Assembly (NCBI GenBank): GCA_001773695.1
Contig: MEXN01000001.1
Location: 41,903 to 105,902, forward strand
Length of the DNA: 64,000 nt
Direction: 5' to 3'
Source of the DNA: Candidatus Amesbacteria bacterium RIFCSPLOWO2_01_FULL_48_25
GTDB lineage: Bacteria; Patescibacteriota; Microgenomatia; CAZETR01; Amesbacteraceae
Below the pieces are notes generated by a model that saw nothing but the letters and a program-made list of their open reading frames with translations, was not told the DNA's origin and did no database searches. The translations under genes were made by a program, and so were the position numbers. This document shows, piece by piece, positions 16,743 to 56,024 of this stretch; the first letter of the stretch is position 1, and each line of letters starts with the position of its first letter.

Positions 16743-17356
16743 ATGCCAAAGTATTTAGCCTTGGAGCGTGGTTGCCCCGGATTCCCACAAAGTATGTGCT
16801 TCATGGTACTTGGGAACAAGCTAGGGTGGATTTAGATTTCACCTACGCGGCTATCACGCGCTCTGGCCTGACTTTCCAGACAGTTCGGCTATCCAAAACC
16901 CAATCCCACATTACTTGCCCCGCAACACCACTCCATAGCCCTTACGGGCAACGGGTGGTTTAGGCTTTTCCGATTTCGCTCACCGCTACTCACGGAATCT
17001 CTTTGATTTATTTTCCAGTCCCTACTTAGATGTTTCAGTTCGAGACGTTCCCCCCACGTTCATTTAACTGAACGTGGTCTCCATATAGGAGGGGTTTCCC
17101 CATTCGGAAACCGCCGGATCAGCGCTTCTTGGCAGCTCCCCGACGACTATCGCGGCCCTGTACGTCCTTCTTCGGCTTTGACATCCTAGGCATCCATTGT
17201 CTGCATTACGGAAGTATAAAATGCGGCTCTACTACAAAATTCTCTTCACTTTTCAAAGAGCAAACATTCCTCAGCCGTTGATGGCTGATCTCGGCCTCCC
17301 CACGAAAGGGAAACCGGGATCAACTCTCAAAGCTTGCCCTGAGCACGGTCGAATGG

Positions 17357-17431
17357 GTGGACTCGGAGGGATTCGAACCCTCGACCTCATCATTGCAAAT
17401 GATGCGCTCTAGCCAACTAAGCTACGAGCCC
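17357..17431 (-). tRNA. tRNA-Ala (anticodon UGC)
   Basis: GGGCTCGTAGCTTAGTTGGCTAGAGCGCATCATTTGCAATGATGAGGTCGAGGGTTCGAATCCCTCCGAGTCCA has a G3:U70 pair, a UGC anticodon and a canonical T-loop. It sits immediately upstream of the 23S. Confidence 0.85.
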
Positions 17432-17442
17432 TCCGAATCTAA

Positions 17443-17471
17443 ATTGTCAAAAAAACACCTCCTTTCGGAGG
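17443..17471 (-). terminator. Intrinsic terminator (CCTCCGAAAGGAGG + U-run) upstream of tRNA-Ala
   Basis: Minus-strand hairpin followed by TGTTTTTTTG. It would separate the upstream protein genes from the tRNA-Ala-23S-5S unit. Confidence 0.45.
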
Positions 17472-17605
17472 CCACGATTACCTTGCTTTATAGGTGCTCT
17501 AGGACACGCCCGACACCAAGTTGATTAGATTTAAAAGCAAAGTCCTCATGAATTCAAACCACCCTCGAAAGGTAATCCTGATATTACCTTCCCCTTCCCT
17601 CCCTG

Positions 17606-17908
17606 TCAAGCCCGTCCACTATGGTTATGCATAAGTTTTGGCTGTGAAGCAAGTATCCTAACCAGTTCCCTCCTAGCCTTTTCGGCAACAAGTATGTTCG
17701 CATTGACCAACCTCCTATCAATATTTGCCTCCGAAACCCCTTCGGTAACCCCGGGATCCAACTCATAATAGTCACCGGATTTATCCTTTAATTCTTTCAG
17801 CCTGGCCAGCTTAACTGAATACGAAACCCCACTTAGTACATCGGCATCAAAAGATCCCAGCATCTCCTCACGTCTCATTCTTTCATCAAACTGAGCATCA
17901 GTTTCCAT
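17606..17908 (-). CDS. Hypothetical protein (100 aa), last gene of the HlyD/MacB-like cluster
   Basis: Acidic, non-repetitive composition; no motif recognised. Confidence 0.3.
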   Translation of the reverse strand: METDAQFDERMRREEMLGSFDADVLSGVSYSVKLARLKELKDKSGDYYELDPGVTEGVSEANIDRRLVNANILVAEKARRELVRILASQPKLMHNHSGRA

Positions 17909-17940
17909 GGCTATATTTTAAAATCCCTTCCAGTCAACTC

Positions 17941-19179
17941 TTATTCATACCTCAAGGCCTCAATCGGGTCTAAACGCGCGGCCCGTACCGCCGGCGCCAG
18001 TCCCGATACTATCCCCACCACGGCCGACACCCCAAAAGCCAAGAGTACCGATCCCAAGCTCACCTGAGTCTCGATAAACCTTCCCAAAATTAGAGAAAAC
18101 CCGGCCCCTATGCCTATTCCCATTCCCCCCCCCAGTACCGACAATACTATCGCCTCAATCAAAAATTGCAGCAGTATATCTCTTTTAGTCGCCCCCACCG
18201 CTTTGCGAAGTCCAATCTCCCGCGTCCTCTCCGTCACCGACACCAGCATAATATTGGCAATCCCAATTCCGCCCACAACCAGAGAAATTGCCGCAATCCC
18301 AGACAATGCCCCCGTCACCACCCCCAAAAATGAATTAATCGTCTCCAATAGTTCCTTAGGCTCAAGTATCGTAAAGTCGTCATCCGTCAAATTCTTGCGG
18401 TAAAAATAGTTTTTAATTTTCCGGGCAGCCACCGCCGTCCCCGCAGCATCCACTGTCCTCACCATTACTGCCGCCGGTTTTTTAATCCCCGTTACCCGAG
18501 ATGCCGTAGTCACCGGCATCAGCACAAAAGTATTTTCATCACTATTTCCTCCTATCCCCCCGCCTTTCTCCTTCAAAACTCCGACAATAGTCATCTGCGA
18601 TCCCACCACGTCAATCTCCTTTCCCACCGCATCGCCGACCCCGCCAAATAGTTCCTCATAAACCTTGTGTCCAATTACCACTACCATCTGGCTCCGTTCC
18701 AGCATACTTTTAGTAAAAAACCTGCCCATTTCCACCTCCACGTTGCCGTAATCCAAATACTCCTCGCTTACCCCCGCGATATTTCCGTAAAAGGTTTCAG
18801 AGCGGTATTTTAGTGTCCCCCCCCGGGAAATCATCCCCGACGCCTTCACTATCGGGTCTCCCAAATCGCCTATTTCTTTTATGTCGTTAAAATCAAACTT
18901 CGCCTCTACGTTTCTTGGCGGTCCGCCAGAAAAACTCACTTTCCCAGGCGATATCAAAAGGATATTCGACCCCAAGGACTCAAATTCACGCGTCACAAAT
19001 GCCTGCAGCCCGTTGCCAATAGACACCAAAAGAATGACCGACGCCACCCCGATAATAATCCCCAACGTAGTCAAAACCGACCGCGTTTTATTGGTTCTAA
19101 TAGCAATCCCGGCCGTCCTAAATAACTCGACTCTATCCATACTATCTGATGACGATCCTTTCGCCTTCTTTAAGCCCAA
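17941..19179 (-). CDS. ABC transporter permease, MacB/FtsX family (MacB periplasmic core domain + FtsX)
   Basis: N-terminal TM, a large periplasmic domain, then a C-terminal FtsX-type 3-TM bundle (TERTREIGLRKAVGATKRDIL). No ATPase gene is adjacent. Confidence 0.8.
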   Translation of the reverse strand: MGLKKAKGSSSDSMDRVELFRTAGIAIRTNKTRSVLTTLGIIIGVASVILLVSIGNGLQAFVTREFESLGSNILLISPGKVSFSGGPPRNVEAKFDFNDIKEIGDLGDPIVKASGMISRGGTLKYRSETFYGNIAGVSEEYLDYGNVEVEMGRFFTKSMLERSQMVVVIGHKVYEELFGGVGDAVGKEIDVVGSQMTIVGVLKEKGGGIGGNSDENTFVLMPVTTASRVTGIKKPAAVMVRTVDAAGTAVAARKIKNYFYRKNLTDDDFTILEPKELLETINSFLGVVTGALSGIAAISLVVGGIGIANIMLVSVTERTREIGLRKAVGATKRDILLQFLIEAIVLSVLGGGMGIGIGAGFSLILGRFIETQVSLGSVLLAFGVSAVVGIVSGLAPAVRAARLDPIEALRYE

Positions 19180-20137
19180 CTTTTACTTCTATCAAATCAT
19201 CCCCCTCAATCCCTATCTCCACTTTCCTCTTCCCTCCACCCTCCATCTCTGCCTCACCATCCACCACGGCTTCAATCGGCAACTTCAATACATTTTTCGC
19301 CTCCGAAACGACAAGTGTCGCATCCCCGTTCATCCCCACCCTTAATATCTCAATATCCTCTTCACTTATCTTGACTCTCACCGAAAACACTGTCGCCCCG
19401 GCATCTGAAATATGGGCCACAAACTCAATTATTTTTATTTCCCCTTCAAATTCTTTATCCGGATATGCATCCAGCTCAACCTTCACTTTCTTCCCAATAG
19501 TTACCATGGACAAATCCGCCTCATCTACCTCGGCCTCAAAATACAGCGAGTCGGGATCCACTACATCCACTCCATCGGTAACCCCCGCCGCCTGCCCTAC
19601 CACATTCACAGTCACCCTGGCCACAACCCCGTCAAATGGCGCGATCAAACTGGCATTATTCTTGGCCCGGATCGCGCTCTGCCACGTATCATAAGCTTTA
19701 TCCCTGACGGTCTGTGCCGCCACCCGCTTGTTTTTCAGAACAAATGTCTCGTCATTATCATGGCCTTTTACTTCGTCCTCCACCTGTTTGGCATTAGCAT
19801 CCGCCGCGATATAACTATAATAGGCGGCCGTTTCGGCAGCAGCCAAATCCCGCACGTCCAATCCCATCATAGCCGTCCCCTTTTTCACCTCGTCTCCCTC
19901 GCGGGCCTTCACATACCCCAGCTTACCCGGACTCAAGAATCGTAAATGCGCTTCTTTCTCCGCTTTGATTTTCCCCGATAGTGCCAGAGTCCTAACCACG
20001 TCACCCTTCTCCACGCTCACAATCCTTGTATTCTTGTTGTTGTTGCTTTTACTCCTCATCCACAACCACCACCCCGCCCCAACGACAAGTATTAAAATAG
20101 CAATCGCTATGTTGCGCCGCCTCATAGACTTACCCAT
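19142..20137 (-). CDS. Efflux/secretion periplasmic adaptor (HlyD/MacA family membrane fusion protein)
   Basis: N-terminal TM anchor, coiled-coil segment, lipoyl/beta-barrel segments. It overlaps the permease gene. Confidence 0.75.
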   Translation of the reverse strand: MGKSMRRRNIAIAILILVVGAGWWLWMRSKSNNNKNTRIVSVEKGDVVRTLALSGKIKAEKEAHLRFLSPGKLGYVKAREGDEVKKGTAMMGLDVRDLAAAETAAYYSYIAADANAKQVEDEVKGHDNDETFVLKNKRVAAQTVRDKAYDTWQSAIRAKNNASLIAPFDGVVARVTVNVVGQAAGVTDGVDVVDPDSLYFEAEVDEADLSMVTIGKKVKVELDAYPDKEFEGEIKIIEFVAHISDAGATVFSVRVKISEEDIEILRVGMNGDATLVVSEAKNVLKLPIEAVVDGEAEMEGGGKRKVEIGIEGDDLIEVKVGLKEGERIVIR

Positions 20138-20419
20138 TTTAACTCACCGTGCTAAACTTAAATAAGATTATGAAACCAACCACAGTCGTCTTTAGTCTCA
20201 TAGCCACCATCGCTGTCGTTTTTCTTGTGGCGGCCATTGGTTCCTTCCTCTACGGCATATTCATCCTCCCCAAACTCAACCGCGGCATTTTTTGTATTCA
20301 ATCCCTCTCCCGTTCCTGCTTTCTTGGTTCCACTATCTGTTACAATTTCCCCAATCCCTGCTCCGCCCCACCCCTCTGGTACCCCAGATCCCGCTAGTTA
20401 AGATATAATTCACCTGTTC

Positions 20420-20491
20420 GGGTCGCTGGTTCAGCGGTAGAACGTCGTCCTGATAAGACGAAAACGCCAGGTCCGACTCCTGGGCGACCCA
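20420..20491 (+). tRNA. tRNA-Ile (anticodon GAU)
   Basis: GGGTCGCTGGTTCAGCGGTAGAACGTCGTCCTGATAAGACGAAAACGCCAGGTCCGACTCCTGGGCGACCCA folds as a cloverleaf only on the plus strand. Anticodon loop CTGATAA; T-loop TCCGACT is non-canonical; a TATAAT box lies 10 nt upstream. Confidence 0.7.
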
Positions 20492-20504
20492 CTAAAACTA
20501 TCCA

Positions 20505-20741
20505 TCACTCTACTAGAGTAAATCCAATCATTCGCCCCTCTTTATTCACCACCTCATCAAACTTTCGGCCATTTGGTAATTGCCACCTTGTCTTTTTTTC
20601 CCCATCCTTATCTCTACACCAAACAGCCTCCCACCCCCACCGCTTCCTATCCTCAGCAATTGCAAACTCCTTTTCCAGCCGCCGCCTATTTATCAAGCCC
20701 ATAAGACGAAGATACTCCAAATCGCCTATCTCCTTCATCAA
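20505..20741 (-). CDS. Hypothetical small protein (78 aa)
   Basis: ORF between tRNA-Ile and the 16S; basic/acidic mix; no motif. Confidence 0.3.
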   Translation of the reverse strand: MMKEIGDLEYLRLMGLINRRRLEKEFAIAEDRKRWGWEAVWCRDKDGEKKTRWQLPNGRKFDEVVNKEGRMIGFTLVE

Positions 20742-20992
20742 ATATCTGTTTTTAAGCTCTTCCGTTTCTGTTCTCCAACCCGGAAATCTCCCTCTCGAGT
20801 CCCTCCACCATATCTTTATAAACCATAAATTCCGTATACCGCAGTTCGGAAAGAGAATTCTCGTGCCGCACGCCCCGGAATTTTCTCTTGGCCTCCAAAT
20901 ATTTCGGCTTATATTTCGCCAGCTGCTCCTCCAAATATTTCAGCCTCGTCTGAGTGTCCATACCCCATTTTAACCCTCCGACCAACAGTAAC

Positions 20993-21235
20993 CTACTGCC
21001 TAAAAAGCAACACACCCAAAAGGCGAGCCAACACCGACTCTCTTGGATTTACACGCATCCAATATCCCCTACGAACCCTATCTACTACTCCCCTCATGTG
21101 ACATTGGGTACAACTAAATTCTCTGCCCGCCAGCCCTTCCGCAGCTTTCTTCTTCAATATCTCAGGCAACGGACAATCGCTCTCTTGTTGACAACCCACA
21201 ATTACTAATGGCACTCCTAACCTCATTTCTATCAT
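20993..21235 (-). CDS. Hypothetical small Cys-containing protein (80 aa; C..C...C..C.H zinc-ribbon-like)
   Basis: CQQESDCPLPE...CTQCHMRG. It sits just after the bidirectional terminator that follows the 16S. Confidence 0.3.
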   Translation of the reverse strand: MIEMRLGVPLVIVGCQQESDCPLPEILKKKAAEGLAGREFSCTQCHMRGVVDRVRRGYWMRVNPRESVLARLLGVLLFRQ

Positions 21236-21261
21236 ACTCAGATTATATCAATAACAAGGCC

Positions 21262-21291
21262 AAAAAACCCGCCAAATAGGCGGGCTTTTTT
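21262..21291. terminator. Bidirectional intrinsic terminator AAAAAACCCGCCAAATAGGCGGGCTTTTTT
   Basis: Perfect 6-bp GC stem flanked by an A6 run and a T7 run, located about 180 nt past the 16S 3' end. Confidence 0.75.
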
Positions 21292-21470
21292 GCTTGTACT
21301 CTAAAAAGTGGTAGGAAATATAAGTAGCGGGAAACTGCTTTTGACGTGTGCTGCTTCCCCTACCTGCGGGTCCCGTTATTTTAATGTGGACGGTTTCCAA
21401 TGACCACAGGGTGATTTCCACTACGGCTCTGAAAAAATTAATTTTCTAAGCCTACCGTGATTAACTCCTA

Positions 21471-22965
<1,495 letters not shown>

Positions 22966-23200
22966 GAATTGCGTGTTTACGCAAATCATTAATTTCCTAT
23001 AACCAACACCCGTAAGGGTGGAGGTTATATCGAACCGAAAGGCGAATGCCATAAAGCTCTACCTAATGATTCGATACCACTTCTTAAAGTATAAGAAGTG
23101 TACCTTACTCATATAAACGCCAATTTTCAAAGAGCCACGATCCAGAAGCGAAGCCAATTCTACATCAATAATTTATAAATTACAACCGCCGCGGCCAGGC

Positions 23201-23449
23201 CTACTGATAGTGGTCATTTATATCTACCACTTCCACTTCGCCATCTCCGGTCACAATAAAAACCGCTCTGTATTTTCTATCAATTCTAAACGAATACAAC
23301 TTCAGACTTCTAGGTTCCAGTAATTCCGTGTTCAAAGACGGATAATTTTGGTCCATTTCAAACAAACCGCGCTGTTTTTCAAATTTTCTGGCCAACCCCC
23401 TCTTTTTCAAGTACTTTATCAAGTCGTCCCTCAACGGTCTAACTCGCAT
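23201..23449 (-). CDS. Type II toxin, RelE/ParE superfamily
   Basis: 82 aa with basic/hydrophobic RelE-like pattern (RKYRAVFIVTGDGEVEVVDI). It overlaps the upstream antitoxin gene by 11 nt. Confidence 0.65.
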   Translation of the reverse strand: MRVRPLRDDLIKYLKKRGLARKFEKQRGLFEMDQNYPSLNTELLEPRSLKLYSFRIDRKYRAVFIVTGDGEVEVVDINDHYQ

Positions 23450-23702
23450 AAGCGCTCGACTTCCCCAATCCTCTCACCACGCTATCTATAAACTTCTCAC
23501 TGTATCTGCCGGTCTTAGCTAGCTCCAGCTTTATCTCACCCAAAGGTCGTGCATCAAAACTCTCCAATTTCAATTGACCGGAAAAATATTTCCTTAATAA
23601 GTTCCTGAAAAACTCAGACCGTGTAGCAAATCTCCCCCGCTTAACTTCGGAGTCGATTTGCTGGGTAATCTGACTAGGTACAGAAATGGTCAATGTTGCC
23701 AT
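23439..23702 (-). CDS. Antitoxin, ribbon-helix-helix/ParD-like (start MATLTISVP)
   Basis: N-terminal beta-strand plus two helices, TISVPSQITQQIDSEVKRGRFATRSEFFRNLLRKY. Confidence 0.55.
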   Translation of the reverse strand: MATLTISVPSQITQQIDSEVKRGRFATRSEFFRNLLRKYFSGQLKLESFDARPLGEIKLELAKTGRYSEKFIDSVVRGLGKSSAYAS

Positions 23703-23708
23703 AAGAAC

Positions 23709-23737
23709 ATTTAAGAACATTTCTTATATTTTGTCAA
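23709..23737 (-). promoter_or_regulatory. Promoter TTGACA-17-TTAAAT for the toxin-antitoxin operon, with tandem AAATGTTCTT direct repeats (operator candidate); leaderless
   Basis: In minus-strand reading: cgcTTGACAaaatataagaaatgttcTTAAATgttcttATGGCAACA. The 10-nt direct repeat occurs twice, overlapping the -10 box and the start codon. Confidence 0.55.
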
Positions 23738-23799
23738 GCGTCTTATAAACCACAACCGCCGCCGCCACATACACATTCAGCGATTTACCCAAAATCAAA

Positions 23800-24009
23800 T
23801 CACCTATTTTTCCCCTGCTCAACACCCGGGCCCGACATCAAAGACAAGTCATCTCCTATTTCCACCTGCCCGTTAGCCACCATTCTCCACATCCTCCTTC
23901 TTACTTCTACCGATCTAACATTTAGCTCATCCGCCAATTCTCTAAACATTCCCACCACATCACTCACCGGGATGCGTTTAAGAATCCCCTTCTCAATCAG
24001 TAACCCCAT
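23800..24009 (-). CDS. Hypothetical small protein (69 aa)
   Basis: The ORF is bounded on both sides by duplicated spoU 3'-end remnants. Confidence 0.3.
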   Translation of the reverse strand: MGLLIEKGILKRIPVSDVVGMFRELADELNVRSVEVRRRMWRMVANGQVEIGDDLSLMSGPGVEQGKNR

Positions 24010-24018
24010 ACCAAAATA

Positions 24019-24564
24019 CTACATCCCTTCCAAAATTTTGTAAACCACCGCCGCCGCAGCCACATGCACATTCAGGCTTTTATTTATTCCATACATCGGT
24101 ATCTCTACAATCACATCCGCCATGTCCAAAACCTCCTCATAAATCCCCTCGGTCTCATGGCCAACCACGATGGCCACCGGCCATCCAGCTAATAGCTTAT
24201 GGCTAATAGCTGATAGCTGAATTGCCCTCGAATCTTGCTCTACGGCTATGATTTTAAGACTTGGGATTTGGGATTTGAGGCTTGCCAGCGCGGAAACCGC
24301 ATCCGGCTCGTACTTCCAGGGAACCCAGGTCTCGGTGCCAACCGCGGCTTTATGAATACGAGAGCTGGGTGGTCTCTCCGTCCCCCCACAAAGTATTACT
24401 TCACGAGCCGCCACCGCATCCGCCAGGCGAAACAACGACCCGATATTATATGTATCCAACACGTTATCCAAAACCAAATACATCGGTTTCCTCTCAATTT
24501 TGGCCAACTCTTCCTCCGTCGGCCTTCTCACCCTCAACTGCTTCGCATTCAACTTCATCCCCAA
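24019..24564 (-). CDS. SpoU/TrmH-family RNA 2'-O-methyltransferase
   Basis: SPOUT motifs (IVVGHETEGIYEEV...IVEIPMYGINKSLNVHVAAAAVVY). It contains an in-frame insert from GCTAATAGCT and TTGGGAT repeats. Confidence 0.8.
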   Translation of the reverse strand: MGMKLNAKQLRVRRPTEEELAKIERKPMYLVLDNVLDTYNIGSLFRLADAVAAREVILCGGTERPPSSRIHKAAVGTETWVPWKYEPDAVSALASLKSQIPSLKIIAVEQDSRAIQLSAISHKLLAGWPVAIVVGHETEGIYEEVLDMADVIVEIPMYGINKSLNVHVAAAAVVYKILEGM

Positions 24565-37026: not shown

Positions 37027-38112
37027 TTATTTTTTCAGAAAATATTTTGCCGCCTTAGTCGACCCTCTCTTAACTATCACTCCTTTTTGCAGCAGATATT
37101 TAAACTCCCGCAAAATCGTGTCTTCGGATACCATAGACAACATTTTCCTCGCCTCGGCCATTGTAATTTGCCCGTTGCTGTTTAAATACTCGACCAGCTT
37201 CATCTGCCGCGGCGACAGCGCCACCTGCTGCCCCACCCTCTCTTTAATTTTTATGTCGACAGATAACTCCTTCACTTTCAGCTTTATCCGTGTCAATTCA
37301 TCAGCCAGTGCCTTGGTAAAAACAGTCAGCCAAGCCGTCAAATCCCGGTCTTCCAGCCTAGGGGCCAGGTTAGACACCTCCATCAAAGCCCCGAAGTAAT
37401 CATCCGCATGCTGGTCAAAGTATTCCTCCAGGGCAAAAAATCTCCTGATGTCGTACCCTTCCCGATGCAGCATCAGCGTTGCAAACGCCCTAGCTGTCCG
37501 TCCGTTACCCTCCGTAAACGGGTGTACCGCCGCCACCACATAATGAGCCACCCCAGCCCGCAAAATCGGGTGTTCCCGCCCCCCCAGTTCGCTATTTATA
37601 TACCGGAAAAAATCATCCATCAGATACGGCACTTCCATAGCCAGGGGAGGCCGGAAACCCACCTCCCCCGTCACCGAGTTTCTCAAAACCACTTGCACCT
37701 GCCGGTACTTGCCCACCTGCTCAGCCGGCACAATTTTATCGACAACCAGCCTGTGGATCTCCCACAACTCCTCGCGCGTATACGCATTCACCCCACTCTT
37801 TTCCAAATACTCCAACACTTTCCTATAATTAATTACTTCCTGCACGTCCCGTTCTCGGGCAGCCACTCCCTCGGCAGCCGCTTCAGCCGGCGTCTCCACT
37901 TCCCGCTCCAAAATAATCTTCGCCTCTCCCAAGCTTAAATCATTGCCTTCCAAAGCAGTCCCATAATGCACCGCCCGCAGTCTGGCATCATCCCGGAACT
38001 TTGCCTCCCACATAGGCACCAGCGGCGCATTTTCAATTACTTCCCTGGCCGCCTCAATCTGCCCAATGTTCTTCAAAATATCGGTGATAATGATATATTT
38101 AGGTGTATACAT
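37027..38112 (-). CDS. Fic-family protein (AMPylator/Doc family) with C-terminal winged-helix
   Basis: HPFTEGNGRTARAF matches the Fic core motif HPFx[DE]GNGR. The probable start is MYTPKY at 38112; the listed N-terminal extension is translation of the leader element. Confidence 0.8.
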   Translation of the reverse strand: MYTPKYIIITDILKNIGQIEAAREVIENAPLVPMWEAKFRDDARLRAVHYGTALEGNDLSLGEAKIILEREVETPAEAAAEGVAARERDVQEVINYRKVLEYLEKSGVNAYTREELWEIHRLVVDKIVPAEQVGKYRQVQVVLRNSVTGEVGFRPPLAMEVPYLMDDFFRYINSELGGREHPILRAGVAHYVVAAVHPFTEGNGRTARAFATLMLHREGYDIRRFFALEEYFDQHADDYFGALMEVSNLAPRLEDRDLTAWLTVFTKALADELTRIKLKVKELSVDIKIKERVGQQVALSPRQMKLVEYLNSNGQITMAEARKMLSMVSEDTILREFKYLLQKGVIVKRGSTKAAKYFLKK

Positions 38113-38130
38113 TCCTAAAAATTCGGTGCA

Positions 38131-38205
38131 GGCGAGATGCAAAATGCGCCCGCAGCCGGACGCCGGCAAACGCCAGGCAGTCGAGGACGTAATTTTGCGC
38201 TCGCC
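38131..38205 (-). promoter_or_regulatory. Conserved GC-rich leader element copy 1 (structured RNA or operator candidate), about 25 nt upstream of fic
   Basis: It shares the core GCAGCCGGACRCCGGCAAACGMCCAGGCAGTCGAGSACG with 58421..58493. Outer arms GGCGAG/CTCGCC and GCAAAAT/ATTTTGC bracket the core. Confidence 0.45.
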
Positions 38206-51360: not shown

Positions 51361-51440
51361 CTACTAAATATTACCACTCCCGCGAGGACTTCATGAAATC
51401 AATTTTTGGAATCCGCAAAGCCAGCTTCGAATGGTATAAT

Positions 51441-51446
51441 AAGAAT
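51441..51446 (+). promoter_or_regulatory. -10 box TATAAT about 10 nt upstream of the GC-rich ORF-free region
   Basis: cttcgaatggTATAATaagaattg. Confidence 0.35.
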
Positions 51447-51454
51447 TGTTCTTT

Positions 51455-51745
51455 CAAAAAGACGTGCGGGGTAGTGTAGAGTTGCACGGAAGGCTAGTAG
51501 TATGGGCCCCGCCGACAGTAATGTCGGTGTGCAAACTTGGCTATATCGGTGGACACCCCGGTGTAATACCGGGACAATACCGAGGCAATCCCGAAAGGGC
51601 GAGTCCGTAGAGACTAAACGCCAAGTCCCCCCGAAGCTTCATGCGAAGGGGGAATGATATAGTCCGACACTCAAAGTAATTTGAGATTACAGATCAGCAT
51701 AATCTTCCAGGCCGGGCGCGACTCCCGGCCCCGCAACAAGTAAAA
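51455..51745 (+). ncRNA. Unidentified structured RNA candidate (about 290 nt, GC-rich, ORF-free)
   Basis: No ORF in any frame across about 350 nt, and GC markedly above the flanks. Many local hairpins with GNRA-type loops: GCGGGG...CCCCGC, CCGACA-GTAA-TGTCGG, CCGGT-GTAAT-ACCGG, CCC-GAAA-GGG, CTCAAA-GTAAT-TTGAG, GCCGGG...CCCGGC. Confidence 0.35.
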
Positions 51746-52228: not shown

Positions 52229-53188
52229 TTAGGTTGACAATTTTCGCTGCCTTTGCCGCCCTTTAACATATCTTTCTATAGCTTCTTGAGTGGCAACCCA
52301 AATGCGCTTTTCCTTGTGTGCTTCGATTTTTCCGAAACGGGCCAAAAGATTGAGATATTTCTTTGAGTAAGGAGTTAAATTTACCAACGAAGACAGTGGT
52401 TGATATTTTTTCCCGGCATCTACTTCGGGAGACAGGGTTTTTAGGTAAATATTCAACGATCGTTCTATCGCTTGGGCCACAAAGCGAATCAACGGAGCAA
52501 GCTTCCCTTTGTCCGCATCTGCCAAAACCCGATAATATTTTTGCCTGTCGTTTTTTAGAATAACCACCAGAGGATAGCCTCTGTTTAGTAAGACAAGGTT
52601 CATAACCAAACGGGCAGTTCGTCCGTTACCATCCACAAAGGGGTGGATGTAAACCAGTTTGTGATGCAGAATAGCCGCGAATTCAACAGGATGGAGCTTT
52701 TGAATATTCTCCCCGGCCCAGGATATCAAATCGCTCATCTCAAACGAAACTTCACTCGAATCCGGTGGTAAATGGTCGGAACCGGTAATCATGACATTGG
52801 TTTGTCTATAACTTCCGGCTTGGTCCGCTTCCGTTTCCCGAACTACCAGCTTGTGCAGGTTTCTGATTAAAACTTCCGAAATTGTTTGTTGGGAGTTTTT
52901 TTCAACTAACTCATAGAGGTAATCCAACGCGTCGTAATGATCACGTGCTTCCAGATGGTCTTTAAGCGGTTTACCCTTGATAGTCAGGCCGTCTTTAATA
53001 ACCCAAGCCGTTTCTTTGAGAGTTAAGGAATTGCCCTCAATCGCGTTGGAATTGTAAGTCATTTCTATGGCAAACTGTTCCCGCAGCTTAGCCACAGCAG
53101 ATGTAGACAACGGTCTTTGAGGGTTAAGTTTGGCCAGTTTTTCATCAATTCTAGCCTGAATTCGAGAGTCTAATATGGTATAGACCAT
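52229..53188 (-). CDS. Fic-family protein
   Basis: HPFVDGNGRTARLV core motif; C-terminal helical domain. Confidence 0.8.
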   Translation of the reverse strand: MVYTILDSRIQARIDEKLAKLNPQRPLSTSAVAKLREQFAIEMTYNSNAIEGNSLTLKETAWVIKDGLTIKGKPLKDHLEARDHYDALDYLYELVEKNSQQTISEVLIRNLHKLVVRETEADQAGSYRQTNVMITGSDHLPPDSSEVSFEMSDLISWAGENIQKLHPVEFAAILHHKLVYIHPFVDGNGRTARLVMNLVLLNRGYPLVVILKNDRQKYYRVLADADKGKLAPLIRFVAQAIERSLNIYLKTLSPEVDAGKKYQPLSSLVNLTPYSKKYLNLLARFGKIEAHKEKRIWVATQEAIERYVKGRQRQRKLST

Positions 53189-53426: not shown

Positions 53427-54104
53427 ATGGCAAAATCGTACCTTAAAAACAGGGCCATCGAGCTTCGTAAATCCGGCCTGAGTGTCAAGAATATCGCTGA
53501 ATCCCTAGGAGTCTCCAAAAGCACCGCAAGTTTGTGGGTCAGAGACATAGTCCTTTCTCTTGAACAAGAGGAGTCTCTAAAACAAAGATCCTTAAAAGGA
53601 GCGGAAAAGGGTCGCACAATCGGATCGCTAGTTCAAAAACAAAGACGGCTCAAACTGCTAGAAACAGAGAAAAAAATCGGGATAAAAGAGGTGGGGCAAC
53701 TCACCAAAAATGAGCTTAAAGTCGGCGGCTTAGCTCTGTACTGGGCCGAAGGATCCAAAAAGAACCGCAGAGTCGAACTTTGCAACTCGGATCCCTTCGT
53801 TATCAAGTTCTTCATCAACTGGCTCATTAATACTTTCGACATACCCATAAAGGAACTCTCTTGCTATGTCGGTATTAATGAGGCTCACAGGGCTAGAGAA
53901 GTCAAAGTGAAAAAATACTGGTCGCTCTTAACGAAAATTCCCCTCACCAGCTTCACTAAAACTAGCTTCAAAAAGTATCCCCTCAAAAAAGAATATCCAA
54001 ACTTTGACGAACACTATGGCACACTTTCAGTTCGTGTGCGGAAACCGGCACGAATTTACTATAAAATCCTAGGTGGAATCCACGGACTGTCCATGGCTAC
54101 GTAG
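53427..54104 (+). CDS. HTH + LAGLIDADG-like putative homing endonuclease (225 aa)
   Basis: N-terminal HTH (LRKSGLSVKNIAESLGVSKSTASLWV) and a LAGLIDADG-like motif GGLALYWAEGSK. The stop codon TAG lies within nucleotides 8-10 of the downstream tRNA (GGCTACGTAG). Confidence 0.45.
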   Translation: MAKSYLKNRAIELRKSGLSVKNIAESLGVSKSTASLWVRDIVLSLEQEESLKQRSLKGAEKGRTIGSLVQKQRRLKLLETEKKIGIKEVGQLTKNELKVGGLALYWAEGSKKNRRVELCNSDPFVIKFFINWLINTFDIPIKELSCYVGINEAHRAREVKVKKYWSLLTKIPLTSFTKTSFKKYPLKKEYPNFDEHYGTLSVRVRKPARIYYKILGGIHGLSMAT

Positions 54105-54167
54105 CTCAGCGGTTAGAGCGCACGCTTCATAAGCGTGATGTCGCTGGTCCGATCCCAGCCGTAGCCA
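54095..54167 (+). tRNA. tRNA-Met (anticodon CAU; elongator type or tRNA-Ile-lysidine, not initiator-like)
   Basis: GGCTACGTAGCTCAGCGGTTAGAGCGCACGCTTCATAAGCGTGATGTCGCTGGTCCGATCCCAGCCGTAGCCA is a complete cloverleaf. G1-C72 and the absence of three G-C pairs in the anticodon stem argue against an initiator. T-loop TCCGATC. Confidence 0.85.
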
Positions 54168-54431
54168 CATGTCCAAAGATATTCTGTTCCGGATCCGCCA
54201 ACCCCAAAAACCAGGGCCAACAACTTTTCTCAATGGTATCCCATACTCACGAATAAGACACGCATACAATCTAAGCAATCAAGCCCCTGTTGAAGAATCA
54301 CCCTCCTCAATAACCCTTTTCGAGAGAGTTGTTACTAGTAAAACCAGTTGGATAAGGCCATGTCGCGTAATTACGCCACGCGAATGGCTGGTATCTCAAT
54401 TAATCAAACTCTTTCCCAACGAAAAAGTGGT

Positions 54432-54803: not shown

Positions 54804-55742
54804 TTGCAATCTCCACCCCAACCAGGTACAATTCATCAATTAACCTGTCCCATAGTCAATTTACAAATGGCCTCACTTCCCGACCCAATTAGCTTTGATA
54901 CTGCCCTGGAGAAATTTACCAGCCACCTTAAAAGTCAACACCGCTCTTCCTCCACCTCAATAGCCTATATCGGCGACCTGGCCCAACTCCGCTCCTACCT
55001 GGAAACTCACCGCATTACCCAAGCTACTACCGTCCAAACCCAGCACTTAGAGGAGTTTGTCACCCAGCTGGGAGAAAAAAACTACACTCCCAAGTCTATA
55101 AGCCGCAAGATCAACTCACTCAAGACTTTTTTCAAATTCCTCCATCAAACCGGCCTCCACAACTCCAACCCCGCCTCTCCCCTCACCCACCCCAAATACA
55201 CCACTCCCCCACCCCGCATATTAACCCAAGAAGAATACTCCAAGCTGCGCGACGCCTGCCGACTGGATATTAGGGTTTGCGCCATCGTCGAGATCCTTCT
55301 CCAAACCGGCATGCGCATTTCCGAGCTGGCCAACCTCAGGCTGGAAGACATCAAGAAAAACGAGCTTTTCATCCGCCCTCTAGAAAACAATCCGGAGCGT
55401 TCCATCCCCTTAAACCGCCAGGCTACCATCGCCATTCAGAACTACCTGAGCCTGCGTCCCACCACTGCCGATACCCATCTTTTCGTCACCAAAACCGGCC
55501 GGCCGCTACTGATTAGAAATATCAGAACCAGTATCGATCGCTATTTCAAAAAGGCCGGCCTGAGCAACATCAAAGTCAACGATCTTCGGCACACCTTTAT
55601 AGCCCACCAGCTAAGTAACGGCGTCCTGCCCGAAGTCATCCACAAACACGTCGGTCACCGCCGGATCAGTTCCACCGAAAAATACCTCGAATTTATAAAG
55701 ATCACCGCCACTACCACCTCCTCCAAACTCCTGGAATTGTAA
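54804..55742 (+). CDS. Tyrosine site-specific recombinase (XerC/XerD/integrase family); likely start MASLPD near 54870
   Basis: N-terminal SAM-like core-binding domain; catalytic R...HxxR...Y (LRHTFIAHQL, HVGHRRISSTEKYLEF). Confidence 0.8.
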   Translation: MQSPPQPGTIHQLTCPIVNLQMASLPDPISFDTALEKFTSHLKSQHRSSSTSIAYIGDLAQLRSYLETHRITQATTVQTQHLEEFVTQLGEKNYTPKSISRKINSLKTFFKFLHQTGLHNSNPASPLTHPKYTTPPPRILTQEEYSKLRDACRLDIRVCAIVEILLQTGMRISELANLRLEDIKKNELFIRPLENNPERSIPLNRQATIAIQNYLSLRPTTADTHLFVTKTGRPLLIRNIRTSIDRYFKKAGLSNIKVNDLRHTFIAHQLSNGVLPEVIHKHVGHRRISSTEKYLEFIKITATTTSSKLLEL

Positions 55743-55949: not shown

Positions 55950-56024
55950 TGGTGACTCGACGGGGAATCGGACCCCGATTACGGGGATGAAAGCCCCGTG
56001 TCCTAGCCGTTAGACGATCGAGCC
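55950..56024 (-). tRNA. tRNA-Glu (anticodon UUC), CCA encoded
   Basis: The minus-strand read GGCTCGATCGTCTAACGGCTAGGACACGGGGCTTTCATCCCCGTAATCGGGGTCCGATTCCCCGTCGAGTCACCA has anticodon loop CTTTCAT and T-loop TCCGATT. Confidence 0.8.

Follow-up and report, generated by a model that had tools for sequence, protein, structure and literature searches.

Gene-end duplications and toxin-antitoxin cassettes at the spoU/rRNA-operon junction of a Microgenomates genome

Background

A mode of insertion reported for restriction-modification systems is termed insertion with long target duplication (Nobusato et al. 2000, Gene 259:99; Furuta, Abe and Kobayashi 2010, PMC2853133); it is also cited in PMC3457768. 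In this class, the repeats, e.g., of 46 bp, lie over gene 3' ends, no other mobile genes are present, the hosts are mostly naturally competent, and no mechanism is known (PMC2853133). In this study, a stretch of 64,000 nt from Candidatus Amesbacteria bacterium RIFCSPLOWO2_01_FULL_48_25 was analysed (GenBank assembly GCA_001773695.1, contig MEXN01000001.1, positions 41,903 to 105,902 of the forward strand), and it is called the window below. The host genome is an Amesbacteria-like member of Microgenomates, in the candidate phyla radiation. In the window, the 3' end of spoU, a methyltransferase gene upstream of the 16S rRNA gene, is present three times, and a small open reading frame (ORF) and a toxin-antitoxin pair lie between the copies. 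It is rather likely that Microgenomates have a hot spot for insertions where spoU meets the single rRNA operon, and that insertion with long target duplication is how cassettes entered it.

Three copies of the spoU 3' end

The following features were found between spoU and the 16S rRNA gene. Positions are those of the window, L numbers denote loci fetched for comparison, and a relic is a copy of the spoU end downstream of the functional gene.

24019..24564, minus strand: intact spoU, SpoU/TrmH-family RNA 2'-O-methyltransferase (PF00588, 104 bits, residues 28-175)
24019..24081, minus strand: copy A, the functional spoU 3' end, KSLNVHVAAAAVVYKILEGM and stop codon, with promoter-like TTTACA (24044..24039)-N17-TAGTAT (24021..24016)
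23800..24009, minus strand: cassette 1, a 69-aa ORF that begins 10 nt past the spoU stop codon, no Pfam or NCBIfam match
23724..23786, minus strand: relic B, in-frame spoU C-terminus, KSLNVYVAAAVVVYKTLDKI and stop codon, orthologous to a relic of L005
23703..23737, minus strand: left end of the toxin-antitoxin cassette, TTGACA (23737..23732)-N17-TTAAAT (23714..23709) and tandem AATGTTCTTA
23439..23702, minus strand: ribbon-helix-helix (RHH) antitoxin, 87 aa, PF01402 (RHH_1) at 23.7 bits against a cut-off of 20.5, ParD-like N-terminus
23201..23449, minus strand: RelE/YoeB-superfamily toxin, 82 aa, weak YoeB and ParE matches under the cut-offs
23160..23200, minus strand: relic C, in-frame spoU C-terminus, GLAAAVVIYKLLM and stop codon, a shuffle-tested repeat match
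21472..22965, minus strand: 16S rRNA gene (Rfam RF00177, 1339 bits)

Read along the minus strand, the order is spoU, the 69-aa ORF, copy B, antitoxin, toxin, copy C, a leader of ~190 nt, and 16S. The same arrangement was present in independent assemblies of the same species, i.e., L081 (100% identical), L161, and L162. The SpoU protein carries the SpoU_methylase domain including its C-terminal motif (PF00588), and its NCBIfam match is RlmB/TrmH-like, under the equivalog cut-offs.

The three copies form one repeat family, i.e., 24038-24082, 23743-23787 (82% over 45 nt), and 23173-23217, which is similar only over its first ~25 nt. A 24-mer of copy B matched copy C with 3 mismatches, and the expected number of such matches was 0.00 in 100 shuffles. 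The toxin-antitoxin cassette is bracketed by a 25-nt direct repeat (left 23743-23767, right 23173-23197), which matches at 22 of 25 positions and scored 16 against a shuffled null maximum of 11. The initial annotation, made from the sequence alone, had placed three spoU ends here and had taken the two downstream ones as out-of-frame remnants. The repeat family and the shuffle test bear out the copies, but not the loss of frame, because each copy reads in an intact minus-strand frame as a SpoU C-terminus and ends in a stop codon. The shared serine is AGC in one of copies A and B and TCG in the other (A vs B, respectively); thus, the copies are diverged coding sequences, neither a coincidence of GCC runs nor a recent copy.

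The two relics differ at their tails. The native part of relic B (KSLNV...YK) covers 23742-23786. Its last 18 nt (23724-23741, read as TLDKI-stop) are part of the toxin-antitoxin cassette promoter, so the frame runs ...VVVYK/TLDKI-stop into the cassette. Relic C lies 4 nt past the toxin stop codon and has a native-like tail.

Genes between the copies

The ORFs between the copies were as the initial annotation had described them, and domain matches were added. Homologs of the 69-aa ORF were confined to close relatives. One homolog, 33% identical, was in L108, where it likewise lies directly upstream of a spoU relic. The AlphaFold model of this ORF was unusable and too poor for a fold search (predicted local distance difference test score 56), and a helix-turn-helix fold is only a guess.

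The toxin gene overlaps the antitoxin gene by 11 nt. All toxin scores were below the cut-offs, i.e., YoeB 17.8 against 27, ParE 17.3 against 23, and TIGR02116 19.3 against 51.8. The toxin belongs to a large Patescibacteria family of 82-aa proteins, and among its homologs (n=271) some are named Txe/YoeB or RelE/StbE by their sources. The antitoxin ATG is 6 nt past the -10 box of the cassette end, and the tandem 10-nt repeat AATGTTCTTA is situated between the -35 box and this ATG. The hexamers would be the promoter of the toxin-antitoxin operon, and the tandem repeat may be its operator. The pair shows the traits of type II toxin-antitoxin systems, i.e., an upstream RHH antitoxin, overlapping genes, and a candidate operator of its own.

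In L162, a strain 99.4% identical over 5.3 kb, the toxin protein (L162:55-303 against window 23201-23449) was 88% identical. The differences are visibly concentrated in the toxin gene, and relic C and the leader are identical to those of the window. This suggests allele replacement or fast toxin evolution.

Comparison across Microgenomates loci

A total of 160 loci with SpoU relatives were fetched, 80 from genomes and 80 from metagenomes, and the gap from the spoU stop codon to the 16S start was compared in 69 non-redundant loci. The order spoU then 16S on the same strand was widespread in Microgenomates, with gaps of 60 to 5141 nt. For the relic census, a hidden Markov model of the last 32 SpoU residues was run over the downstream DNA translated in all six frames, with a threshold of 8 bits. 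At or above this threshold, 21 relics were found in 16 non-redundant loci including the window. Every one of them was on the strand of spoU, and the opposite strand had none. In upstream control DNA (384 kb and 205 kb), the maximum was 3.3 and 4.8 bits, respectively. A frame-independent DNA search gave essentially the same main relics and one short extra relic in L088. By gap length, the relics were distributed as follows.

Gap up to 250 nt: 19 non-redundant loci, 0 with a relic
Gap 251-1000 nt: 19 non-redundant loci, 2 with a relic
Gap above 1000 nt: 31 non-redundant loci, 8 with a relic

In the uninserted state the repeated sequence is therefore single-copy, as seen in the 19 loci of the shortest gap class. 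The insert was missing in relatives with alignable flanks, i.e., L003, L007, and L009, in which spoU lies 60-77 nt from 16S.

L005 (73% SpoU identity) represents a sister lineage. It has spoU, the 69-aa ORF, and relic B in common with the window at 80% nucleotide identity. Past the stop codon of relic B, a gene of a CxxCxxCC-domain protein replaces the toxin-antitoxin pair of the window, and similarity returns in the rRNA leader. Relic B of L005 keeps a native-like tail (LLEGI-stop), and that of the window is cassette DNA. Because the junction of the 69-aa ORF and relic B is common to both loci, it is older than the split of the window and L005. The two different tails indicate that the toxin-antitoxin pair entered relic B later, in the lineage of the window only. 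The initial annotation had proposed that the copies mark successive insertions that duplicate the target, and had expected that an alignment of spoU-downstream regions would show variable cassettes at the same site. Both are supported, by the single spoU end of uninserted relatives, the different cassette of L005, and the 15 other non-redundant loci with relic-bounded inserts.

In L150, L036/L121, L078, and L130, relics follow straight after the stop codon without intervening cargo. L150 (5531-5816) has three such relics in tandem, ~105 nt apart, which encode the same peptide with different synonymous codons.

The relic-bounded inserts carried toxin-antitoxin pairs of five families, and the remainder were small ORFs without known domains.

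Window: RHH and RelE/YoeB-like toxin
L001 and L108: PIN and AbrB/MazE-like antitoxin (by Pfam for L001, by sequence similarity for L108)
L077: DUF4258 and DUF2283
L141: BrnT and CopG antitoxin
L068: Phd/YefM antitoxin

In a Pfam scan of 24 cargo ORFs from 11 loci, no integrase, transposase, or other recombinase family was found, and 13 of the ORFs matched nothing.

Other target genes of the same cassette

The same RHH/RelE-like operon was found at unrelated loci, and it always opens with the promoter CTTGACAAAA..., a cassette end present also in L166, L169, and L163. In L166, from Daviesbacteria, the operon follows an M48 peptidase gene and is bracketed by a 50-nt direct repeat from the end of that gene; 48 of 50 positions match, and the two mismatches are synonymous. 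On the left, the repeat forms the functional gene end, which runs into the cassette promoter (...GRQG/RLDKIS-stop). The right copy is placed 3 nt past the toxin stop codon and keeps the native tail (...GRQGKV-stop). The window and L166 cassettes thus have the same anatomy, and the cassette ends coincide exactly with the repeat ends. In L173, the same cassette is located between NTIPWQK-stop and a LigT-like relic, PTLLWQKLN-stop, with an 18-nt repeat that alone is not above the shuffled control. A 14-nt repeat was found at the same positions in L169. Different cargo, i.e., a 62-aa ORF and an aspartic-protease-like ORF of 136 aa, was found in L177 behind the same M48 end; its relic matches at 51 of 55 positions, and 4 of 5 differences are synonymous. 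Because of the contexts in L166, L173, and L177, gene-end duplication is specific neither to spoU nor to one cassette.

The Daviesbacteria M48/HtpX gene end (L166:3639-3688, L177:2704-2758) carries a GC-rich palindrome, CCTGCCTGCCGGCAGGCAGG or a hairpin variant, which adds 10 residues ahead of the native ...GKV-stop tail. Three of the four examined loci with this extension had a cassette and a relic behind the gene. In L178 and L179, other cargo was found behind M48 and no relic. An inverted member of the same RHH/RelE-like family adjoins spoU in L111 (3256-3751); the toxin gene overlaps the stop codon of spoU with its last codons, and no repeat was found to flank the cassette.

When the ends of all ORFs in the fetched loci were scanned for downstream duplicates, spoU was dominant and the others were mostly tandem paralogs. 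A thioredoxin-reductase-like C-terminus (AAMDVEKYLGINPATR) is duplicated just downstream of its gene in L045 (3640). An identical 12-residue gene end (KPRNLAKSVTVK) occurs 40 nt past its gene in L118 (525) and L119 (4888). These end duplications hint that the phenomenon is wider than spoU.

Divergence of the copies

Twenty-two relics were compared with the functional end of the same genome. The proportion of synonymous differences (pS) was 0.67, i.e., near saturation, and that of nonsynonymous differences (pN) was 0.16. The observed pN/pS of 0.24 is uncorrected, and it is biased, as only recognisable relics can be found; ~0.5 is expected for a freely drifting local duplicate, which at such a synonymous distance could no longer be recognised. 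A relic that is still recognisable but saturated at synonymous sites must have spent most of its divergence time within a working gene, and one of the copies would then derive from the allele of another lineage. This suggests that the copies were already diverged alleles when they met, and that one of them arrived with the cassette as a different functional gene-end allele. Young pairs were found in L029 (95%), L108 (96%), and L166 (96%). Decayed relics also exist, e.g., the frameshifted middle relic of L108.

The spoU end as a candidate rRNA promoter

Two further elements of the window lie between the toxin gene and 16S.

23157..23185, minus strand: candidate rRNA-operon promoter in relic C, TTGTAA-N17-TAGAAT, in which TAG is the relic stop codon
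23122..23137, minus strand: boxA-like leader element TGGCTCTTTGAAAATT, conserved upstream of 16S in most loci

In the insertion-free loci L002, L003, L007, L009, L012, L014, L022, and L034, a perfect TTTACA-N17-TAGAAT or TAAAAT was found. The L-Y-K codons hold the first hexamer. The second includes the stop codon in most of the loci, but is displaced a few nt downstream of it in L012 and L022. A conserved GCTCTTTGACA-like element follows 25-55 nt further on, and then 16S; L014 ends too early to show it. This leader element resembles the rrn boxA consensus. Where only 60-77 nt separate the stop codon from the mature 16S end, there is no room for another promoter. The tail after L-Y-K has five residues in most insertion-free loci and a variable sequence, and this fits a constraint on spacing.

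In the window, L005, L001, L004, L008, L010, and L015, the relic nearest to 16S keeps the hexamers in the same register to boxA. A promoter scan also flagged copy A (24044..24016) and copy C (23185..23157) as promoter-like. The 3' end of spoU and the rRNA promoter thus appear to overlap, and in the window this promoter is probably still relic C. The reading of the repeats as marks of insertion stands, and this apparent second role had been missed in the earlier account.

Proposed course of the insertions

The favored explanation is insertion with long target duplication. Ancestrally, spoU would have overlapped the rRNA promoter with its last codons, so that the -35 box fell within L-Y-K and the -10 box at the stop codon, and boxA and 16S would have lain within about 60-80 nt of the spoU end. 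The comparison shows that at least two compact cassettes were inserted in this genome, and that each left behind a direct repeat of the coding sequence at the 3' end of its target. The 69-aa ORF was inserted first, with a duplicated segment of about 63 nt (A/B), and the RHH/RelE-like pair later, into the tail of relic B, with a segment of about 25 nt (B/C). Since the second insertion, the frame of B ends inside the cassette promoter, and C retains the native tail. Relic C would now act as the rRNA promoter, and the promoter-like hexamers of A and B could drive the cassettes downstream of them. As for the mechanism, a cassette may arrive on DNA of a related bacterium, together with the donor's version of the gene end, and be joined by recombination anchored in the short gene-end homology. 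The displaced copy would survive at spoU because the rRNA promoter is carried on it.

Several points weigh against this explanation, besides the bias of pN/pS. No exact empty site was found for the toxin-antitoxin insertion of the window, and its nearest relative, L005, holds another cassette. The repeat B/C of 25 nt is under the criterion of more than 30 bp (PMC2853133); A/B (45-63 nt) and L166 (50 nt) are above it. All of the repeats are short. Recombination driven by homology over 25-60 nt at 80-85% identity would be inefficient. Relics of independent events often begin at the same codon, i.e., KSLNV in the window, L005, L108, and L150, and LKALHEMEG in L166 and L177, a recurrence that would be in keeping with a defined site or with cassette exchange. 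No flanking repeat was found in four of the eight contexts of the toxin-antitoxin family of the window, and the tandem relics of L150, two of which have a spacer and a junction in common, are poorly explained. The absence of recombinases was read from 24 selected cargo ORFs of 11 loci, 13 of which matched no Pfam family, and promoter function from an E. coli-type consensus and conservation.

Alternative explanations

The strongest alternative, possible although unlikely, is site-specific integration by a recombinase acting in trans (Xer-type or an SCC-like serine recombinase), with an att site in the spoU 3' end and cassettes that are decayed or non-autonomous; every att copy would then record a single integration. 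The initial annotation had leaned toward such an integron-like or Xer-like mechanism. The locus behaves as a hot spot, the left boundaries of relics recur at the same codon across events, and staphylococcal cassette chromosome (SCC) elements do likewise at the 3' end of another SPOUT methyltransferase gene, some without recombinase genes (PMC4723332). A candidate enzyme is also encoded in the window.

54804..55742, plus strand: Xer-type tyrosine recombinase, the only recombinase among 26 window ORFs screened, 31 kb away

The gene is flanked by tRNA-Met (54095-54168) and tRNA-Glu (55950-56024). Against site-specific integration, the repeat length is variable, from about 25 to 100 nt, and the repeats of one cassette family are wholly different between the targets spoU, M48, and LigT-like. 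No shared core or dyad was seen, and the inverted-repeat list has no arm in copy A or copy B; the sole arm in a copy (I12) sits in relic C and pairs with the 3' end of the toxin gene. The copies diverged at synonymous sites and were not conserved as DNA, and the scanned cargo contained no recombinase family. Variable repeats, unrelated target genes, and the lack of a recombinase family in the scanned cargo speak against the mechanism of the initial annotation.

It is improbable that cassette exchange by ordinary homologous recombination accounts for the whole pattern, i.e., that a rare repeat-cargo-repeat structure was swapped among relatives via spoU and 16S or via the repeats. The copies would then record inheritance and swapping, not new insertions. 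L005 agrees with the window in A, the 69-aa ORF, and B but not in the stretch from B to the rRNA leader, L166 and L177 have the same repeat boundary with different cargo, and the toxin of L162 is 88% identical within flanks of about 100% identity. However, exchange leaves the origin of the duplications unexplained, as well as the presence of the same cassette between duplications of three unrelated genes. Such exchange probably operates as a second layer atop insertion with long target duplication, with which it is compatible.

Local tandem duplication of spoU or remnants of a paralog, followed by deletion, with intervening ORFs that are later arrivals or spurious, is very improbable. The cargo-free relics directly after the stop codon in L150, L036/L121, L078, and L130 would suit it. 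But synonymous sites are near saturation while amino acids are conserved, the cargo genes belong to real families with their own promoter, and the cassette ends match the repeat ends exactly.

Chance similarity of GC-rich alanine and glycine codon runs, the refutation foreseen for the initial annotation, or an assembly artefact beside 16S can be dismissed: although the core is rich in GCC/GCG and contigs often break at 16S, shuffling gave 0 expected matches, the frames are intact with stop codons, the pattern recurs in 16 loci on one strand only, and the arrangement is identical in four independent assemblies.

Other features of the window

The rRNA operon is interrupted in an unusual manner, with 16S and 23S 4.2 kb apart (17356-21472). 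The interval contains three consecutive small ORFs of ~77 aa, an opposite-strand tRNA-Ile (20420-20492), a membrane-fusion-like gene, and a MacB-like ABC transporter gene (Pfam labels via L162), with tRNA-Ala just before 23S. An Rfam group I intron match of 62 bits was found at 51428-51686 on the plus strand, outside the predicted rRNA and tRNA genes, and it adjoins a Fic/DOC gene. Two Fic/DOC-domain genes (37027-38169 and 52229-53188, the latter beside the intron match) are present in this 64-kb window of a small genome.

Significance

How chromosomal toxin-antitoxin and restriction-modification modules move outside recognisable mobile elements is an old open question, and insertion with long target duplication, known from a few dozen cases, was never explained. 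The spoU locus and its Microgenomates replicates form a defined system with sharp cassette ends, known uninserted targets, and events of different ages, and the same cassette family offers a second and a third target gene. Another suggestion from the comparison is that these reduced genomes have their rRNA promoter within the gene preceding the operon. If so, this would constrain insertions there and explain the persistence of the fossils. A broader proposal, which we put forward only tentatively, is that Patescibacteria gain small cassettes, chiefly toxin-antitoxin pairs, without recombinases, from DNA of relatives that is taken up, anchored by homology in the last codons of a conserved gene, and joined with duplication of the gene end. 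At spoU, where this end would double as the rRNA promoter, the copies would persist and each would supply the promoter of the next cassette, which would make an integron-like expression array without integrase.

Comparison with known systems

Like integron arrays, the locus lines up small cassettes, most of them poor in promoters and many of them toxin-antitoxin pairs, with repeated sites downstream of a fixed point. Unlike them, it has no IntI and no attI, and its repeats are fossils of coding sequence rather than attC palindromes. No attC sites were seen between the cassettes; neither copy A nor copy B has an inverted-repeat arm in the general inverted-repeat list, which is not a dedicated attC model. 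An integron was rejected, as the Xer-like protein scored 67.8 against a cut-off of 265 in the integron integrase model, and no recombinase lay within about 30 kb among the 26 ORFs screened.

Phages and islands that integrate into the 3' end of protein genes with a substitute gene end, e.g., e14 and phage 21 in icd, bring a diverged copy of the last codons of the gene and leave the native end as a relic. In those cases too the differences between copies are largely synonymous, but the elements, tens of kilobases in length, carry an integrase gene. Xer-dependent modules (pdif modules and IMEX elements) resemble the cassettes here in being small, recombinase-free, and often toxin-antitoxin pairs. 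They are moved by the host enzyme and need 28-bp XerC/XerD sites, whereas no sequence common to the spoU, M48, and LigT-like repeats was seen here.

SCC/SCCmec arrays at rlmH (orfX) of staphylococci likewise target the last codons of a SPOUT-superfamily methyltransferase gene and leave the gene intact. Successive elements are split by direct repeats and vary in content, and some segments have no recombinase genes (PMC4723332). SCC elements, however, are kilobases long and use a fixed 15-bp site and Ccr serine recombinases. Here, the repeats vary between 25 and 100 nt and the same cassette uses other target genes. Neither a fixed short site nor, in the scanned cargo, a Ccr-type or any other recombinase family was found.

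Insertion with long target duplication has the most in common with the spoU locus. In both, a compact addiction-type module lies between long, variable target repeats that are unique in the genome and often overlap a gene 3' end, and the insert has no transposase or integrase (here, among the 24 cargo ORFs scanned). In our literature search, no report of this kind of insertion was found for toxin-antitoxin cassettes, and here small ORFs and type II toxin-antitoxin pairs take the place of restriction-modification genes. The locus differs further in its Patescibacteria host, in events stacked two to four deep at one hot spot, in a repeat that seems to carry a promoter, and in one repeat of just 25 nt. 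With these differences, insertion with long target duplication is the described class that the locus best fits.

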